A stretch of DNA of 5,878 nucleotides from a virus (taxonomy: Duplodnaviria; Heunggongvirae; Uroviricota; Caudoviricetes), in the IMG/VR virus record IMGVR_UViG_2681813274_000006. One strand, written 5' to 3'. The position numbers were made by a program, and so were the translations under genes. How positions within the stretch are numbered: the stretch's first letter is position 1; each line of letters opens with the position of its first letter. Positions 1 through 5,878 of this stretch are shown here, in pieces. The notes beneath the pieces were generated by a model that searched no databases, was not told the DNA's origin, and saw only the letters and a program-made list of their open reading frames with translations.

Positions 1-570
1 AAACACTATCAATAAGTTGGAGTCATTACCCGATATCCTGCTGAGAACATAAACACCCACGGATCGAGGCGTACGCTATCATGTTGCTACCACACTGACA
101 TGTTTTAAAAAATGCAATAAGACATTGTATCTGANNNNNNNNNNNNNNNNNNNNNNNNNNNNNNNNNNNNNNNNNNNNNNNNNNNNNNNNNNNNNNNNNN
201 NNNNNNNNNNNNNNNNNNNNNNNNNNNNNNNNNNNNNNNNNNNNNNNNNNNNNNNNNNNNNNNNNNNNNNNNNNNNNNNNNNNNNNNNNNNNNNNNNNNN
301 NNNNNNNNNNNNNNNNNNNNNNNNNNNNNNNNNNNNNNNNNNNNNNNNNNNNNNNNNNNNNNNNNNNNNNNNNNNNNNNNNNNNNNNNNNNNNNNNNNNN
401 NNNNNNNNNNNNNNNNNNNNNNNNNNNNNNNNNNNNNNNNNNNNNNNNNNNNNNNNNNNNNNNNNNNNNNNNNNNNNNNNNNNNNNNNNNNNNNNNNNNN
501 NNNNNNNNNNNNNNNNNNNNNNNNNNNNNGCCGGGTTTTGTGATGACCGGTTACGCCAACCCTGTACGTC

Positions 571-620
571 TCACCACCTCCCTGATTGGCGTCAGAGGTG
601 GTGATCATCCAATTAATTGG
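571..620 (+). promoter_or_regulatory. Inverted repeat plus palindrome immediately upstream of the rha start codon; possible operator or structured element
   Basis: Perfect 10-bp inverted repeat TCACCACCTC (571-580) / GAGGTGGTGA (595-604) with a 14-nt spacer, followed by the perfect 12-bp palindrome CCAATTAATTGG (609-620) and GGAG at 619-622, about 10 nt before the ATG at 632. It may instead lie inside the 3' end of a masked upstream gene. Confidence 0.25.
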
Positions 621-631
621 AGTCATCACAT

Positions 632-1189
632 ATGAATACAGCTATAACTTTTTCTAACGAGTCACCAAAAGTCTTTTTCAAAGATGGTCGCCTGGTTACC
701 ACCTCTCAAGCTGTTGCCGACTACTTCGATAAACAACATAAACACGTTTTAGCTAAGATTGACACACTCGACTGCTCTCCCGAATTTACATCAGCCAACT
801 TTTCGGCCGATGTTCAGACTGTCGAAATTGGCAACGGCGCAGAACGTGAATCACGATGCTACCTGATCACAAAAGACGGCTTCATGTTCCTCGTAATGGG
901 ATTTACTGGCAAAAAAGCAGCCAGACTAAAAGAAGCTTACATTGAAAAATTTAACGCAATGGAAGAAGAACTCCACAAACGTCCTCCTGCAGCACAAAAC
1001 TCCCCCGCCCCAAATAATGGATGCGCATTACTGATCCACTTCGATAAACACGGTCAGGTCGAGTTCACAGAAAAAGTCCCCGCCGATGCGATGGTATGCA
1101 CTCTGGAACGGTTTAAATTTTATCTGGAGCAACATGGGTGGATCGTTGCCCGTAAAGAACAATTGGTGGAAAGGTTGATGCGGTTTTAA
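632..1189 (+). CDS. Rha-family phage regulatory protein: N-terminal Rha-like domain (about 110 aa) plus an uncharacterised C-terminal region (about 70 aa)
   Basis: Open frame of 186 codons from ATG 632 (the ORF track starts at TTG 617; ATG 632 with GGAG upstream is the more likely start). The N-terminal part (TTSQAVADYFDKQHKHVLAKIDTL ... CYLITKDGFMFLVMGFTGKKAARLKEAYIEKF) matches the pattern I recall for the phage Rha regulatory domain. Stop TAA at 1187-1189. Confidence 0.75.
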   Translation: MNTAITFSNESPKVFFKDGRLVTTSQAVADYFDKQHKHVLAKIDTLDCSPEFTSANFSADVQTVEIGNGAERESRCYLITKDGFMFLVMGFTGKKAARLKEAYIEKFNAMEEELHKRPPAAQNSPAPNNGCALLIHFDKHGQVEFTEKVPADAMVCTLERFKFYLEQHGWIVARKEQLVERLMRF

Positions 1190-1198
1190 TGAATGCAA

Positions 1199-1230
1199 AA
1201 CCCCGGATGATCACCGAGGTTAATTTTATC
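1199..1230 (+). terminator. Weak candidate intrinsic terminator after rha
   Basis: AACCCCGG (1199-1206) / CCGAGGTT (1214-1221) forms an imperfect 8-bp stem (one mismatch) with a 7-nt loop, followed by AATTTTATC. Confidence 0.3.
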
Positions 1231-1315
1231 GAGCGTGATTGCCGCTAATCGCCATCGCTCTGATTGAGCGTAAATCATTCAGGTTATTCAGTTCTTCCTT
1301 CTGCTCTCGCTGACG

Positions 1316-1486
1316 TCAATAAATCCCATCATTGCGATCAACCTCATCCTTAACCATTGATGCGAGCAGTTCTTCCAGTTTCTGCGCTGACAGCTTTACC
1401 TGGTGATCTTCAGCATCTTCCCGGGCTATTGTGGTTCGCGCAGTGGCTGATTTTGCTGACATCACCACAGGGGGCAGACGGACCAT
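1316..1486 (-). CDS. Hypothetical small protein (56 aa), convergent with rha
   Basis: ATG at 1486-1484 preceded by GGAGG with a 10-nt spacer (complement of 1497-1501); TGA stop at 1318-1316. Product MVRLPPVVMSAKSATARTTIAREDAEDHQVKLSAQKLEELLASMVKDEVDRNDGIY is charged and probably helical. The track ORF 1316-1597 starts at a TTG with no ribosome-binding site, so I prefer the internal ATG. No family recognised. Confidence 0.35.
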   Translation of the reverse strand: MVRLPPVVMSAKSATARTTIAREDAEDHQVKLSAQKLEELLASMVKDEVDRNDGIY

Positions 1487-1552
1487 TGAACCATGGCCTC
1501 CGGAACAAATAAGGGCAAAAATAACAACCACTATCGAAAGCTCACAAACTAA

Positions 1553-1586
1553 CCGCAGCACGTTCCTGCATACGACGTGTCTGCGG
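1553..1586 (-). terminator. GC-rich hairpin 15 nt downstream of the tfa-fragment stop; member of a recurring hairpin family
   Basis: CCGCAGCACGT (1553-1563) pairs with ACGTGTCTGCGG (1575-1586) with one bulge and an 11-nt loop; a moderately U-rich tract follows on the minus strand. Confidence 0.35.
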
Positions 1587-1600
1587 CATAATCCCAATGA

Positions 1601-1962
1601 TTACTCCCTGACAGGATTTGCAGGCCACTCAATATCAGGTGCAGTTGATGTATCAACACGATTCAACAATACCCGATATTTATTCCATGCCTCCAGCAAC
1701 GATCTTTCTTCCTCCGTTGCGATTTCCAGATCTACAGCATCCTGCAGTGGCGCAATATACTCACTAAATTCCTGGATGTAGAACTGTGTGGTGACGGTCT
1801 TCCAGCCATTCGGCTNNNNNNNNNNNNNNNNNNNNNNNNNNNNNNNNNNNNNNNNNNNNNNNNNNNNNNNNNNNNNNNNNNNNNNNNNCTCACTAAATTC
1901 CTGGATGTAGAACTGTGTGGTGACGGTCTTCCAGCCATTCGGCTCCTGCTGTATCGAAGCAT
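1601..1962 (-). pseudogene. Tail fibre assembly protein (lambda Tfa-like), 3' fragment only
   Basis: Minus-strand translation gives ...[70 protein letters not shown], matching the C-terminus I recall for lambda Tfa ([24 protein letters not shown]). The frame is closed upstream by TAG (complement of 1963-1965) with no N-terminal Tfa region. The track ORF 1732-1962 (-) is in a different frame and does not give this product. The region spans the masked 1816-1888 gap. Confidence 0.7.
1760..1944. repeat. Tandem direct duplication inside the tfa fragment: 56 bp identical at 1760-1815 and 1889-1944, 129-bp period
   Basis: Exact 56/56 identity on either side of the 73-nt N block. 129 bp is 43 codons, so the duplication is in-frame if the masked length is real. 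Confidence 0.6.
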
Positions 1963-2026
1963 ACTAGGCTATTTCAATATCGCTATGCTGCGGCAGCATT
2001 TAACCCCTTGTAATTCATCGCCATAA

Positions 2027-2055
2027 TTGATTTAATTCACAAATAAAACTATAAT
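2027..2055 (+). promoter_or_regulatory. Sigma70-like promoter for the methyltransferase gene
   Basis: TTGATT (2027-2032), 17-bp spacer, consensus TATAAT (2050-2055). The -10 abuts the ATG at 2056, so the real start may be the in-frame ATG at 2068 (MKKNTDD...), preceded by GGTGA. Confidence 0.4.
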
Positions 2056-2724
2056 ATGGTGAAATTAATGAAAAAAAACACAGATGATGGGGCTAAAATT
2101 TACACACCACTTACCCTAAAGCTTTATGACTGGTGGGTTTTGGGAGTATCAAATCGGCTTGCATGGGGATGTCCTACAAAGGAACACCTTCTTCCACACT
2201 TTCTGGAACATTTAGGTAACAACCATCTGGATATTGGTGTTGGAACTGGGTTTTACCTTACTCACGTACCTGAGAGTAGTCTGATATCTTTAATGGATTT
2301 GAACGAAGCTAGCCTGAACGCGGCATCTACAAGGGCTGGGGAATCAAAAATTAAACATAAAATTAGCCATGATGTTTTTGAACCTTATCCCGCGGCGTTA
2401 CATGGTCAATTTGATTCCATTTCCATGTTTTACCTTCTTCACTGCCTGCCTGGAAATATATCTACAAAAAGCTGTGTAATACGCAATGCGGCGCAGGCCT
2501 TAACTGACGATGGAACTCTATACGGAGCCACAATTCTTGGCGATGGAGTTGTGCACAATAGCTTCGGTCAAAAACTGATGCGCATTTACAATCAGAAAGG
2601 CATCTTTTCAAACACAAAAGATTCCGAAGAAGGCTTAACACATATACTCTCAGAGCATTTCGAGAATGTTAAAACCAGGGTTCAAGGTACTGTAGTAATG
2701 TTTTCCGCTTCAGGGAAAAAATAG
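2056..2724 (+). CDS. Class I SAM-dependent methyltransferase (orphan; small-molecule or protein type rather than DNA type)
   Basis: 222-codon ORF with glycine-rich SAM-binding motif I (LDIGVGTGFY), an acidic residue at the end of the following strand (LMDLNE), and a motif II/III-like FDSISMFYLLHCLP. No DPPY/NPPY or PCQ DNA-methyltransferase motifs. Markedly more AT-rich than its flanks. From memory it resembles the prophage methyltransferases ybcY/ymfD of E. coli; not verified. Confidence 0.8.
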   Translation: MVKLMKKNTDDGAKIYTPLTLKLYDWWVLGVSNRLAWGCPTKEHLLPHFLEHLGNNHLDIGVGTGFYLTHVPESSLISLMDLNEASLNAASTRAGESKIKHKISHDVFEPYPAALHGQFDSISMFYLLHCLPGNISTKSCVIRNAAQALTDDGTLYGATILGDGVVHNSFGQKLMRIYNQKGIFSNTKDSEEGLTHILSEHFENVKTRVQGTVVMFSASGKK

Positions 2725-2731
2725 CATCCAA

Positions 2732-2769
2732 CCGCAGCACGTTCTTGCTTAAGACGTGCTACGGTTTCC
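2732..2769 (+). terminator. Candidate intrinsic terminator 8 nt after the methyltransferase stop
   Basis: CCGCAGCACGT (2732-2742) / ACGTGCTACGG (2754-2764) forms an 11-bp stem with one mismatch and an 11-nt loop, followed by TTTCCTTT. The left arm is identical to that of the hairpin at 1553. Confidence 0.45.
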
Positions 2770-3027
2770 TTTACGATTTGGGGTTGCGACTTTACCTCTA
2801 TTGATAATGCATTCCGGCAGAACGTTCAAATATGAACGTACGATATTTAACTAACCGAAAAACAAAATATAGCACAGGCGAGACATTTACCATCTAAGAA
2901 AATAGTATCGTTTTTTTACAGTTAAATCAACATCTCTTCCTTAAAATGAAAACAATAAATTTCAATCCTGAAACATTTTATTTCAGCTTATNNNNNNNNN
3001 NNACGTGCTGCGGCATAATCCCAATGA

Positions 3028-3138
3028 TTACTCCCTGACAGGGTTCGTAGGCCACTCAATATCAGGTGCAGTTGATGTATCAACACGGTTCAGCAACACC
3101 CGATACTTTTTCTAGGCTTCCACCACCAGCACGACAAG
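3028..3138 (-). pseudogene. Second copy of the lambda-type tfa 3' end (about 27-35 codons), fused to the pin remnant
   Basis: Minus-strand translation of 3111-3028 gives [27 protein letters not shown]. It is about 90% identical at nucleotide level to 1575-1685 and is preceded by an in-frame TAG (3114-3112) where the other copy has TGG (Trp). Confidence 0.7.
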
Positions 3139-3354
3139 ATGCCGCATACAGTGCCCCAGTCAGTCCAGTTTTCAGACAACCAGTGCGTCACCTTTTTGAA
3201 GGCGCTTTAAAGCACGTTTTAATCCAGGTCGGCCTGTCCTTGTTCCGCTTAATTTATCTTCAAATATTTGTTCATATCCTGCACAAACAAGAGCGTTTCG
3301 TTGCAGGTCTGTATTCTGGTCATTTGTTGATACCCTTACATAGCCAATCAGCAC
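3139..3354 (-). pseudogene. pin: Pin/Gin/Hin-family serine DNA invertase, N-terminal remnant with in-frame stop codons
   Basis: From GTG 3354: (M)LIGYVRVSTNDQNTDLQRNALVCAGYEQIFEDKLSGTRTGRPGLKRALKRLQKGDALVV, then TGA (3174-3172) where Pin proteins have Trp, then KLD, a second TGA (3162-3160), then LGHCMRH. The catalytic-serine motif YVRVSTxxQ is intact. The remnant stops after about 70 codons instead of the roughly 185-190 aa of intact family members. Confidence 0.85.
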
Positions 3355-3408
3355 GCTGAATCTCCCGTCCAAAAGCACAAATCATGCCATGCAGGCCAGA
3401 AACCGCCA

Positions 3409-3434
3409 TTATCTAAAACCTCGGTTTACGAGAA
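3409..3434. other. gix/pix-type inversion crossover site
   Basis: TTATCTAAAACCTCGGTTTACGAGAA: 26 bp made of two imperfectly inverted 12-bp half-sites around a central dinucleotide. It closely matches the Gin/Hin/Pin crossover consensus as I recall it (TTATCCAAAACCTCGGTTTACAGGAA). It lies between the invertase start and the tail-fibre variable cassette, as in Mu and e14. Confidence 0.6.
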
Positions 3435-4193
3435 CTCGGCACAAGCGGGGAGAAAATACCGTTACTCAGTACAGCGAATACCTGGACTAATCGACAAACA
3501 TTCAGCGGTGGCCTTTCTGGTGAACTATCCGGCAATGCTTCTACAGCTGCAAAATTAAAAACTGCCAGGAAAATAAGCAATGTGGCTTTTGATGGTTCCT
3601 CCGATATCACATTAAAAGCAAGTCATGTTGGTGCGTTTGCCTTAGGGAAAACAGGAAGCACCGTTGCGAATGATAAAGCAGTTGGATGGAACTGGAGTAG
3701 CGGAGCCTATAACGCAACTATTAGTGGTGCATCAACGTTAATTATTCATTTTTATATGGGAGAAGGAAGTTGTCCTGCAGCTCAGTTTCGGATTAATTAT
3801 AAAAATGGCGGTATTTTTTATCGTTCAGCCCGTGATGGTTATGGTTTTGAAGCCGACTGGTCCGAATTTTACACCACCAGAAAACCTTCAGCAGGAGATG
3901 TTGGTGCACTGCCGTTATCTGGTGGTCAACTGAATGGTGCACTGGGTATCGGAACATCCAGTGCTCTTGGCGGTAATTCGATTGTATTGGGTGATAATGA
4001 CACGGGCTTTAAACAAAAAGGCGATGGTAATCTGGATGTTTATGCTAATAACGTCCATGTTATGCGCTTTGTCTCCGGAAGCATTCAAAGTAATAAAACC
4101 ATAAATATTACGGGACGTGTTAATCCCTCGGATTACGGTAACTTTGATTCCCGCTATGTGAGAGATGTCAGACTTGGCACACGAGTTGTTTAG
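3417..4193 (+). CDS. Tail-fibre C-terminal variable-domain cassette; promoterless, with the frame opening inside the crossover site
   Basis: The frame is open from the TAA inside the crossover site (3414-3416) to TAG 4191-4193 (259 codons). The track calls only the GTG at 3582. The product (...LLSTANTWTNRQTFSGGLSGELSGNASTAAKLKTARKISNVAFDGSSDITLKAS...) is Gly/Ser/Thr/Asn-rich like phage tail-fibre distal domains. There is no ATG or ribosome-binding site at the 5' end, consistent with expression only after inversion joins it to a constant region. Confidence 0.7.
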   Translation, partial: NLGLRELGTSGEKIPLLSTANTWTNRQTFSGGLSGELSGNASTAAKLKTARKISNVAFDGSSDITLKASHVGAFALGKTGSTVANDKAVGWNWSSGAYNATISGASTLIIHFYMGEGSCPAAQFRINYKNGGIFYRSARDGYGFEADWSEFYTTRKPSAGDVGALPLSGGQLNGALGIGTSSALGGNSIVLGDNDTGFKQKGDGNLDVYANNVHVMRFVSGSIQSNKTINITGRVNPSDYGNFDSRYVRDVRLGTRVV

Positions 4194-4196
4194 ACC

Positions 4197-4343
4197 ATGA
4201 AGAAAGGCGTGATGTATGAAAAATCAGGCCATGTAATCACGGGGCTTGGTATTATCGGTGAAGTCGATGGTGATGATCCGGCAGTATTCAGACCAATACA
4301 AAAGTTAATTAACGGAACATGGTATAACGTATCGCAGGTATAA
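4197..4343 (+). pseudogene. Detached tail-fibre C-terminal tip (48 codons), separated from the cassette by an in-frame TAG
   Basis: Same frame as 3417-4193, with only TAG plus one codon between them. Its product ...[39 protein letters not shown] aligns with the contiguous C-terminus of the minus-strand fibre ([39 protein letters not shown]). Confidence 0.5.
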
Positions 4344-4345
4344 TC

Positions 4346-4999
4346 ATGCAGCATTTAAAAAACATTGTCGCAGGTAATCCAAAAACCGTTGAACAATACC
4401 AGCTAACAAAGAATTTTGATGTTATCTGGTTATGGTCCGAAGATGGAAAAAATTGGCATGAGGAATTAAAANNNNNNNNNNNNNNNNNNNNNNNNNNNNN
4501 NNNNNNNNNNNNNNNNNNNNNNNNNNNNNNNNNNNNNNNNNNNNNNNNNNNNNNNNNNNNNNNNNNNNNNNNNNNNNNNNNNNNNNNNNNNNNNNNNNNN
4601 NNNNNNNNNNNNNNNNNNNNNNNNNNNNNNNNNNNNNNNNNNNNNNNNNNNNNNNNNNNNNNNNNNNNNNNNNNNNNNNNNNNNNNNNNNNNNNNNNNNN
4701 NNNNNNNNNNNNNNNNNNNNNNNNNNNNNNNNNNNNNNNNNNNNNNNNNNNNNNNNNNNNNNNNNNNNNNNNNNNNNNNNNNNNNNNNNNNNNNNNNNNN
4801 NNNNNNNNNNNNNNNNNNNNNNNNNNNNNNNNNNNNNNNNNNNNNNNNNNNNNNNNNNNNNNNNGACTCTCAGCTACAGCTGGGCATCATTTCCGATGAG
4901 AATAAACAAAAATTAACCGAGTGGATGCTCTATGCGCAGAAGGTTGAATCCACAGACACCTCCAGCCTGCCAGTAACGTTTCCCGAACAACCAGAATGA
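4346..4999 (+). CDS. Tail fibre assembly protein (Tfa); interior masked
   Basis: ATG 4346 lies 2 nt after the preceding stop. The N-terminus [23 protein letters not shown] is paralogous to the minus-strand tfa, and the C-terminus ...[28 protein letters not shown] is Tfa-like. 393 nt of the interior are N-masked, so length and frame continuity are assumed. Confidence 0.75.
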
Positions 5000-5001
5000 G
5001 A

Positions 5002-5032
5002 GAAGGCCCGCTATCGGGCCTTAATTTTTATT
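5002..5032. terminator. Hairpin between the convergent tfa genes; probable terminator
   Basis: GAAGGCCCG (5002-5010), loop CTAT, CGGGCCTT (5015-5022), followed by AATTTTTATT on the plus strand. The T-tract overlaps the stop of the minus-strand tfa (5028-5030). Confidence 0.5.
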
Positions 5033-5555
5033 CAGGCTTTTGTGGCCATTCAGGATTTGCCGTATCCACACGGCTGACCAGAACACTGTAGCGTTCCCAT
5101 GCTTCCAGTCGTGTGCGTTCCTCGTCTGTTGCCATATTCAGCCTGACAGCTCGTTCCAGCGGCTGGATGACTGATTCAGCTTCGGAAAGCAATGCGGCCT
5201 TTTGTGATTCGGCCTGTTGTTGCAGTTCCTGTTCTGTATATTCCCTCTTTACTACTTTACCATCCAGAAACATCCATTTTCCGTTATTGTCTGCGTGACG
5301 ATTTGCCGTAATATCAGGAACTTCAACTATGCTTAGCCCTTCAGGATTAATAGTTGAAACGTCTTTACTGACAGCAACGATGATGTTGTTCTCATCGTAA
5401 GCAATTTTTATGGTGTCTGGCTGAAAATTCTTTTGTTCCTCATACCAGTTTTTGCCATCTTCGCAAAAGAGCCATACCACGCCCGCTTTTTTAGTTAGCT
5501 GGTATTGTTCCGGTGTTTTCGGATTCCCGGCCTTAATATTTTTCAGGTGCATCAT
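5028..5555 (-). CDS. Tail fibre assembly protein (Tfa)
   Basis: ATG at 5555-5553, with GGGGAG about 9 nt upstream, starts 1 nt after the fibre stop. Product [23 protein letters not shown] ... [31 protein letters not shown] has a lambda Tfa-like C-terminal motif. The track ORF starts at an upstream TTG (5591), which I think is less likely. Confidence 0.85.
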
Positions 5556-5556
5556 C

Positions 5557-5878
5557 TTAAACACTCCCCACGTTGTACCATATTCCCCCAATCAATTTCT
5601 GAATTGGCCTTCTGGCAACAGTGTCGACAATATCATCCGCATTGCTGTTAATTGCGGCTGTTAAAACATAACCTGACGCATCGCCAAAGCCGTAGTCGCG
5701 CCATACGTTTTTATATTCAATGCTGCCAAGACGAATATCCCGAACGACATGATTATGCAGCCATGTGCTTAACCAGTTGTTTTCCCACACTGAACCATAA
5801 ATATCGCCACTAGACGCAACTTGCGCACCACTTCCCAGCGCAAATTGAGGTAGCCTGAGTTTAACGGACACTCCTTCC
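5557..5878 (-). CDS. Tail fibre protein, C-terminal part; 5' end lies beyond the window
   Basis: The frame is open to the window edge (the track M at 5871 is a GTG; codons continue upstream). The C-terminus ...[62 protein letters not shown] is homologous to the plus-strand cassette and tip, and is followed directly by tfa. Confidence 0.8.

Follow-up and report, generated by a model that had tools for sequence, protein, structure and literature searches.

The modular theory of lambdoid phage evolution knows linker, or boundary, sequences between modules, and Rad52-like recombinases carry out relaxed homologous recombination. Morons, as Juhala et al. reportedly set out in 2000 (cited in PMC4104026), are promoter–gene–terminator cassettes placed between phage genes. 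Two small RNAs (sRNAs) are also close to the present case: the Hfq-dependent PreS/LPR1, which in lambda arises at the terminator tL2a, located between ea10 and ral (bioRxiv 10.1101/2024.10.31.621285), and CssrB, seen as a Northern band of ~180 nucleotides (nt) in Shigella flexneri 301 between SF2021 and SF2022 (PMC3071730). Here we compare with these systems a 5,878-nt stretch of DNA, IMG/VR record IMGVR_UViG_2681813274_000006 (the window), which is a remnant of a lambdoid prophage and holds GC-rich hairpins beside a methyltransferase gene and two fragments of the tail-fibre assembly gene tfa. A sequence-only reading had picked out four related palindromes (elements 1 to 4) recurring at every module junction, and had suggested that they are the sites at which modules were exchanged, while allowing that they may simply be inherited tfa terminators. 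We put at roughly 0.7 the probability that elements 1, 3 and 4 are paralogous copies of one stem-loop, the factor-independent terminator of a ~95-nt non-coding module in lambdoid prophages of Enterobacterales and a patch that marks junctions; homology of the copies, selection on their structure, a bias towards one strand, an RNA 3′ end at the homologue in Escherichia coli K-12 and the reassortment of flanks are shown below.

The window copies are truncated remnants whose direct sequence homologues lie in lambda: a hairpin between ea47 and tfa (about 22573-22606) and a module between ea31 and ea47. The lambda record examined carries no RNA or terminator feature at either site, and over one of them it places a predicted ‘hypothetical protein’ open reading frame (ORF); nor did the records examined hold any RNA annotation at the K-12 copies. 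Like a linker sequence, the module is a short conserved patch between non-homologous modules, with flanks that reassort and linkage that decays; unlike one, it is structured and transcribed and is under a selective constraint of its own. It resembles PreS/LPR1, a terminator-based small RNA of the lambda leftward unit that many prophages keep, but the location (tL2a, ea10–ral) and sequence of PreS/LPR1 are different and we rejected identity. Other catalogued RNAs were set aside as well: AgvB, AsxR and EcOnc03 map to the PR′ moron site and differ in sequence, EcOnc22-24 are found between tail genes, no module is near EcOnc43 and EcOnc31 at the Sp5 end, and EcOnc47 (Sp15) is on the opposite strand, beside the module and not on it. 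On its own strand in Sakai the module corresponds to none of the Hfq-bound EcOnc RNAs. Repetitive extragenic palindromes and bacterial interspersed mosaic elements (REP/BIME) are likewise GC-rich imperfect palindromes in intergenic DNA, but they number hundreds per genome between core genes, whereas the hairpin has 1-8 copies per genome and was found only in prophage contexts. A Pin-type system in the same locus recalls Pin, Gin and Hin; the hairpin, however, is unlike the 26-bp site at 3408-3433. The window hairpins fit three known kinds of element, namely an intrinsic terminator, a moron-like cassette terminator and the 3′ helix of CssrB.

Recurrence of the hairpin in the window far exceeds chance. 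The 11-mer CCGCAGCACGT, allowing at most one mismatch, occurs four times (1553 and 2732 on the plus strand, 2754 and 3003 on the minus strand) where 0.03 occurrences are expected, and 0 of 200 shuffles reached that number. The identical 15-nt stretch that had been noticed in elements 1 and 3, AACCGCAGCACGTTC, is indeed common to 1551-1565 and 2730-2744; similarity between the two elements extends over 29 nt at 90% identity, and elements 1 and 4 run into 118 nt of tfa 3′ sequence that is also 90% identical. The relationship among elements 1, 3 and 4 is thus real. Folding told the same for the two complete hairpins, with −17.9 kcal/mol on the plus strand and −22.0 on the minus strand for element 1 (z −3.3 and −3.6 against shuffles), and −18.4 and −23.6 kcal/mol for element 3 (z −4.4 and −4.9). 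A covariance model of the wider family, R1, found element 1 with 44.8 bits (E 4e-11) and element 3 with 28.5 bits (E 1e-6), each on the plus strand only.

The proposed fourth member of the family did not hold. Element 2, ATGCTGC-G-GCAGCAT at 1985-1999, is a perfect 7-1-7 palindrome, but its fold is no better than shuffled sequence (z −0.14 and +0.22), R1 does not detect it, and on the minus strand it reads ATG CTG CCG CAG CAT, codons 1-5 (MLPQH) of the residual 89-amino-acid Caudo_TAP ORF. A 10-nt string, TGCCGCAGCA (minus strand), is common to element 2 and the hairpin flank, which we regard as within chance. Neither is there a hairpin at every module junction, as had been claimed: the junctions of tfa fragment A with the methyltransferase promoter and of tfa fragment B with the pin remnant have none.

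Elements 1 and 3 are remnants of the module, not intact modules. In the copy that includes element 1 (1502-1586), the 5′ box and stem 1 are lost; what remains is the 3′ third of the module’s loop, CACTATCGAAAG, followed by a linker that has degenerated and by the terminal hairpin; window 1500-1697 aligns with lambda (L134 4578-4780) at 77% identity over 198 nt, hairpin and tfa 3′ end included, and we therefore identify element 1 with the lambda ea47–tfa intergenic hairpin. Element 3 lacks the 5′ box GTAAAAT, stem 1 (GGCTGG/CCAGCC) and the invariant ~30-nt loop. Both have the features of the terminal hairpin, that is, an AA/AG lead, a stem of 11-12 bp and a loop of type TCTTGCATACG, which in element 1 is TCCTGCATACG and in element 3 the variant TCTTGCTTAAG, found also in loci L083, L162 and L239.

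How many hairpin loci these elements represent depends on the assembly. In the near-identical contigs L012 and L011 and in the collinear locus of E. coli sequence type 131 (ST131) strain EC958, elements 3 and 4 form a single hairpin, each being one of its arms; in EC958, L012 and K-12 prophage DLP12, the methyltransferase gene is followed by one intact hairpin, CCGCAGCACGT-TCTTGCTTAAG-ACGTGCTGCGG, joined directly to a tfa fragment. The left arm of element 4 had been placed inside the masked block, which these collinear contigs make doubtful. On balance we favour an assembly artefact, in which a contig running from the methyltransferase through the hairpin and CssrB (towards ipaH) was spliced to one running from the hairpin into tfa fragment B, the two stemming from paralogous copies of the methyltransferase–hairpin unit, with elements 3 and 4 as two alleles of one hairpin and a 56-nt duplication further upstream as a contig overlap. 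Around the N-run at 1816-1888 the same 56 nt stand on both flanks (1760-1815 = 1889-1944) where near-identical contigs have a single sequence. By BLAST, window 530-1815 and 1889-2764 map to overlapping L012 ranges (590-1875 and 1820-2695), and the mapped ranges of 1889-2764 and 3003-4471 share precisely the 11 nt of the right arm. In length, too, the N-runs disagree with L012 (395 vs 325 nt and 393 vs 273 nt). The CssrB body and ipaH-upstream segment, 2765-2991, is carried by 9 of 5426 complete E. coli genomes and is absent from the collinear EC958 and L012; in all 9 the match ends at the position of the window’s N-run and goes on into ipaH, in none into tfa fragment B, and the window’s junction of this segment with tfa fragment B was not found in the 5426 E. 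coli genomes, IMG/VR or metagenomes of the Joint Genome Institute (JGI). Both junction types occur in a single Shigella contig, L010. Against an artefact, the set of complete genomes searched was that of E. coli, a real ipaH deletion or a real 129-nt tandem duplication would fit if the N-runs preserve length, and the right-hand contig begins merely 7 nt before the variant base, unlike what a k-1 overlap predicts. Because the pattern looks like short-read scaffolding over multi-copy prophage segments, adjacency across the N-runs is unreliable; the N-run at 2992-3002 is probably a scaffold join between contigs of two paralogous copies and not a masked hairpin, and the four elements most likely correspond to two hairpin loci and, in addition, one allele that belongs to a paralogous locus.

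The Shigella contig L010 (a draft, FTTI01000078.1) holds at 124-6503 three methyltransferase copies or fragments in about 5 kb; in one of them a tfa N-terminus is fused to the methyltransferase body, followed by the hairpin, CssrB and ipaH. This pattern reflects either repeated recombination at the methyltransferase unit or another assembly problem.

The reading of elements 1, 3 and 4 as one terminator family rests on the parent module, which in full reads GTAAAATCGGTAACGGCTGGAAATCATTCAATACTCGCACTATCGAAAGTTCACCAGCCAA-CCGCAGCACGT-TCTTGCATACG-ACGTGTCTGCGG, often followed by a T-run. Its parts are a −10-like TAnnnT box, a stem that covaries and presents an invariant single-stranded loop of 30 nt, AAAUCAUUCAAUACUCGCACUAUCGAAAG, and the terminator with its conserved loop. 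An initial loose hairpin pattern had returned mostly chance matches in GC-rich phages from IMG/VR and was replaced by a seed from the left flank; this seed alone, with the hairpin not used, recovered 94 distinct module copies from IMG/VR. Intact copies score 97-128 bits with R1, and the module is present in 215 phage records. Copies in Shiga toxin (Stx) phages lie near the prophage end, and those of enteroinvasive E. coli (EIEC) and Sakai Sp15 follow dinI. Species-level matches fall in Escherichia/Shigella, Citrobacter, Kluyvera and Pantoea. Rather than being common and randomly scattered in the host genome, which the sequence-only reading had named as grounds for abandoning its proposal, the hairpin family is present in 5259 of 5426 E. 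coli genomes at a median of 2 and a maximum of 8 places, seen only in prophage contexts; the three K-12 copies that we located are all in cryptic prophages, though BLAST counts four places in a K-12 record.

Single-base indels among the copies argue against coding, and we take the module to be non-coding. Rfam has no family for it; the window, HK97, lambda, Stx phage and K-12 Qin gave partial CssrB matches through the hairpin only, and a sequence-string search of the searchable library found no paper quoting the module, nor did we find a published name for it. A −35 is evident in one flank class only (TTGAAC-16-TACAAT), although the TAnnnT box is conserved, and since dinI, lambda and Stx-type flanks have none, the module may or may not have a promoter of its own.

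Two further sets of matches concern its distribution. Assemblies from Pseudomonas, Shewanella, Streptomyces, Enterococcus and Paenibacillus, among others, also hold exact module matches; L265, L272 and L298 are lambda-sized contigs of about 48.4-48.5 kb, and L255, L261, L266, L269, L278, L279, L281, L284, L289, L293, L295 and L296 are contigs of 0.26-2.5 kb, most of low coverage. These matches in unrelated taxa are probably phage lambda DNA contaminating the assemblies. In five IMG/VR loci (L199, L154, L230, L195 and L238), the hairpin’s final GCGG runs straight into GGTTCAACTCCCGCCAGCTCCACCA, which we take to be where the ssrA (tmRNA) gene has its 3′ end, in which case the module there would adjoin the attachment-site core of ssrA-integrating phages.

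Selection on structure was evident across the 94 copies. Of the cells in both proposed helices, 93.8% form pairs, and compensatory double changes are seen at 13 of the 16 pairs; compensated cells number 118, against 28.9 in shuffles, and 0 of 500 shuffles reached 118. Controls at slid positions pair at 25-63%. The stem exists in 61 distinct alleles, while the loop columns are each 78-100% conserved. Such free variation of the stem, with compensation and tolerance of G·U pairs, fits selection at the level of RNA and not of a DNA site.

The evidence favours the plus strand as the one from which that RNA is read. G·U pairs in the hairpin outnumber A·C mismatches by 98 to 30, counted over sequences, which favours this strand, and in 50 of the 94 copies at least four of the 8 nt that follow the hairpin are T; the run of at least five A before the hairpin that a minus-strand U-tract would need is found in 0 of 94. 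R1 scores the window copies at 28-45 bits on the plus strand and 7-11 bits on the minus. In K-12, Term-seq lists ‘orphan’ RNA 3′ ends at MG1655 1632571(+) and 1632574(+), within the TTTTT after the Qin hairpin (PMC7815308, supplementary file 1). As no plus-strand gene lies between the Qin boundary and the copy, the transcript with these ends must be short. We conclude that the hairpin family is probably a plus-strand terminator, one that acts in the sense in which the methyltransferase, dinI, ea47 and int are read and that converges on tfa.

These observations make it unlikely that the hairpins are simply inherited minus-strand terminators of tfa at the end of the late operon, duplicated together with tfa 3′ ends and without a role in exchange. 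Elements 1 and 4 do sit 14 nt beyond a tfa stop, within the 118 nt of shared tfa sequence, and lambda has the same arrangement; a minus-strand scan flags 1570-1554 plus GTTAGTTTGT as terminator-like, and the hairpins are more stable as minus-strand RNA. But T-runs, G·U bias and the Qin 3′ ends all point to the opposite strand, most copies lie away from tfa (after dinI, sib or ea31, or at prophage ends), and the flanks reassort. At tfa-adjacent copies there may be a bidirectional effect; the family is not primarily a tfa terminator.

In Sakai (NC_002695), the peak EcOnc47 from Hfq crosslinking and analysis of cDNA (Hfq-CRAC) lies at 2896476-2896522 on the minus strand, antisense to the 3′ end of dinI (ECs_2939); read in the minus direction, it comes a short way past the Sp15 module copy. 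A minus-strand RNA may cross that copy.

We then classified the copies by the 30 nt after the hairpin (right flank) and the 30 nt before the module (left flank), for the 94 distinct copies of this hairpin family only. The sequence-only reading had proposed a prophage-wide look at whether cargo varies next to the core, and among these copies flanks do switch and reassort: there are 40 right-flank and 17 left-flank classes in 58 combinations, 12 right-flank classes occur with at least two left-flank classes, and six four-gamete squares are present. By about 5 nt from the hairpin’s 3′ edge, pairwise identity is down to about 0.27, as for random sequence. Alleles of the module’s 5′ part track the left flank (adjusted mutual information 0.56 vs 0.30), and hairpin alleles track the right flank (0.45 vs 0.28); such a decay of linkage across the module is as expected from crossovers inside the conserved core. 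At the window’s own locus, EC958-type and EIEC-type sequences split inside the last 4 nt of the right arm, GCGG|CATAAT leading into tfa and ACGG|TTTCC into CssrB and ipaH. Left-hand joints lie about 24 nt from the hairpin at element 1 and 8 nt at element 3. The idea that the hairpins are sites of module exchange thus survives in part, in that they are a recurrent mosaic joint at which flanks reassort and linkage decays; nothing suggests that they are dedicated to it, element 2 is unrelated, and two junctions have no hairpin. This partly supports the hairpin as a shared terminator and homology patch and not a dedicated recombination site.

A dedicated DNA site, with a cruciform or hairpin recognized by a site-specific recombinase or transposase (in the manner of attC, IS200/IS605, REP/RAYT or Pin) and cargo inserted there, is very improbable: hairpins at cassette borders, a pin invertase remnant (3172-3378) in the locus and a switch point inside the last 4 nt of the right arm would suit it, but no recombinase consistently adjoins the copies in the differing gene neighbourhoods examined, the Pin-type crossover site lies elsewhere (TTCTCGTAAACCGAGGTTTTAGATAA, 3408-3433) and is unlike the hairpin, copies number merely 1-8 per genome, the stem varies freely with compensation and G·U tolerance, and the left-hand joints stand at unequal distances.

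Several points weigh against the hairpins being terminators of a junction-marking module. Both the G·U to A·C ratio and the flank statistics are tallied over sequences and not over independent events. The Term-seq list (PMC7815308) has no 3′ ends at the Rac and DLP12 copies. On the plus strand element 1 is followed by CATAATCC, which has no T-run, so that it and the EC958 form of element 3 may terminate poorly or only protect 3′ ends; on the minus strand TTAGTTTGT comes after element 1, where it makes a partial U-tract that was flagged as terminator-like, and some function for tfa is possible. Finally, selection by itself could place the joints at the hairpin without homology playing any part, and the flank statistics span this family only. 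Element 3 itself has a plus-strand U-tract with six T in eight, TTTCCTTT; termination at the window’s own copies is what we infer from their sequence.

Element 3 has a second identity. On the minus strand it is the 3′-terminal stem-loop of the Rfam model of CssrB, which matches the window over its full length (Table 1). The strand of CssrB is opposite to the apparent selected strand of the hairpin family, and only its last ~35 nt belong to that family, the body (2765-2912) being ipaH-upstream DNA. The ACGG allele of element 3’s right arm makes a C·A mismatch on the plus strand and a G·U pair on the minus (CssrB) strand. CssrB has the context → ← →, between an SF2021-like methyltransferase and an SF2022-like ipaH; in EIEC and Shigella loci an ipaH effector gene adjoins the CssrB segment, whereas in the window the methyltransferase side is present and the ipaH side is an N-run followed by tfa fragment B.

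Morons carry a single cargo gene and are not required for phage growth. The methyltransferase unit is moron-like, with promoter-like sites (2000-2055) on its 5′ side, a single gene, a hairpin 8 nt after the stop and tfa fragments on both sides, and is transcribed against the late operon. It differs from a moron in that the terminator is not private to the cassette, the hairpin being common to many other cargo units. Indeed, because element 3’s hairpin allele also stands behind a dinI-type module (in L083 and L239), the methyltransferase cassette appears to have been joined to a resident terminator. RefSeq annotates a 45-amino-acid ‘hypothetical protein’, WP_001309429.1, at EC958 L001 5341-5478 (~window 2669-2764 plus flank); its ORF begins in the tfa 3′ flank, crosses the hairpin antisense and enters the methyltransferase gene, and is most likely a spurious call over the hairpin.

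Gene assignments in the window (Table 1) come from the ORF list, the RefSeq annotation of the 98.5% identical locus of EC958 and Pfam marks on near-identical contigs.

Table 1. Features of the window and copies of the module in other genomes
Feature	Position	Strand	Basis or remark
Window
N-runs	135-529, 1816-1888, 2992-3002 (11 Ns), 4472-4864		Comparison with near-identical contigs
Rha-family gene	617-1189	+	
DUF4376 pseudogene	about 1226-1504	-	
Decayed copy of lambdoid module, including element 1	1502-1586	+	R1 44.8 bits; orthologous to lambda ea47-tfa intergenic region
Element 1 hairpin, CCGCAGCACGT-TCCTGCATACG-ACGTGTCTGCGG	1553-1586	+	Followed by CATAATCC (no T-run), with the tfa fragment A stop codon 14 nt past it; identical sequence in EC958, L001 4354-4387
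tfa fragment A, last 89 codons of lambda-type tail-fibre assembly gene	1601-1999	-	Caudo_TAP 89-amino-acid call in near-identical loci; EC958 annotation
Promoter-like sites, TTAACC-16-CATAAT and TTGATT-17-TATAAT	2000-2027 and 2027-2055	+	Consensus matches only; 5′ of methyltransferase
Class I S-adenosylmethionine (SAM)-dependent methyltransferase, homologue of YbcY (K-12 DLP12 ybcY)	2056-2724	+	Moron-like cargo
Element 3 hairpin, CCGCAGCACGT-TCTTGCTTAAG-ACGTGCTACGG	2732-2764	+	8 nt past methyltransferase stop; followed by TTTCCTTT
CssrB sRNA (Rfam RF02799)	2733-2912	-	230.2 bits vs gathering 76; E 5.5e-52; model 1-180 of 180
ipaH-upstream segment	2765-2991	not assigned	Comparison with EIEC, Shigella, EC958 and L012
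Element 4, right arm ACGTGCTGCGG, GCGG allele	3003-3013	+	Contiguous with tfa fragment B
tfa fragment B, about last 28 codons	3028-3112	-	Stop at 3028-3030; EC958 annotation: partial tail fiber assembly protein
pin invertase remnant, truncated, 5′ part only	3172-3378	-	
Invertible tail-fibre segment	3582-5871	+ and -	stf/tfa pairs 3582-4999 (+) and 5028-5871 (-)
Other genomes
HK97 copy	AF069529 20946-21040		Directly after annotated sib site, between int/attP and tfa
Lambda full copy	about 24161-24256		Between ea31 and ea47; R1 110 bits
Lambda degenerate copy	about 22573-22606		15 nt past tfa stop, ea47-tfa intergenic; found by R1
Stx phage 1717 copy			Compensated stem CCGTGGCACGT/ACGTGCCGCGG
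K-12 Qin, full copy	MG1655 1632470-1632571	+	
K-12 Rac copy			Hairpin and flank
K-12 DLP12 copy			Hairpin only
Further copies	L133 2489-2591, L134 2984-3086, L250 3470-3573		

The stop codon of tfa fragment A is TTA on the plus strand (1601-1603), and the N-run at 1816-1888 breaks the fragment up. At about 1958-1962 it has TAG (ccTAGta, minus strand) where EC958 and K-12 have TGG (Trp), a further inactivating change in a gene fragment already truncated. tfa fragment B is 90% identical to the matching part of fragment A. Between the pin remnant and the tail-fibre variable region, TTCTCGTAAACCGAGGTTTTAGATAA (minus strand) resembles the 26-bp Pin/Gin/Hin crossover site; as the invertase is truncated, the tail-fibre segment is probably frozen in orientation. 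Rfam IS009 (RF02111) matches the minus strand at 1644-1812, 3071-3150 and 5056-5245, all under the gathering score. These matches fall on tfa coding sequence, and in lambda the IS009 model matches the tfa gene at 224 bits, so this ‘RNA family’ seems to be a protein-coding segment of tfa.

How such a module might work follows from its place in the accessory (‘b’) region, where leftward cargo (ea47, dinI-like genes, the YbcY methyltransferase) would converge on the late tfa end. With the window’s plus strand as the native working strand, the hairpin would end the cargo transcript and insulate cargo from tfa. Element 1 would then be a lambda-type copy that has decayed and no longer has a gene whose transcript it could end. 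Element 3 would terminate the methyltransferase cassette while its opposite strand gave CssrB, read divergently from an ipaH gene, its terminal hairpin; element 4 would be the right arm of element 3’s hairpin, adjoining tfa fragment B as that arm does in collinear genomes. The hairpin would mark junctions because a transcription unit ends there, so that joints just beyond it are tolerated, and because a 35-95-nt patch of near-identity lets general or Red/Rad52-type recombination swap the flanks; for the pathway, too, we infer one or other of these types.

The window hairpins are thus unremarkable remnants of a terminator that prophages share, and one is already on record as the CssrB end. The ~95-nt module is the more interesting object, with its strong covariation, invariant exposed loop and mapped K-12 3′ end and no Rfam family, and it seems to be a conserved, undescribed small-RNA-like element. 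We suggest only tentatively that the hairpin is the terminator of an undescribed, independently transcribed ~90-nt sRNA of lambdoid prophages, with a conserved core that acts as a homology patch shuffling dinI, methyltransferase, ipaH and other effectors. Cargo near tail-fibre genes does change at this element, among it SOS-inducible dinI, a methyltransferase and the ipaH effectors of Shigella. Should the module prove to be an RNA gene as well as a hinge for recombination, phage lambda would gain an overlooked transcript, and there would be a concrete, testable mechanism by which virulence cargo moves between prophages.

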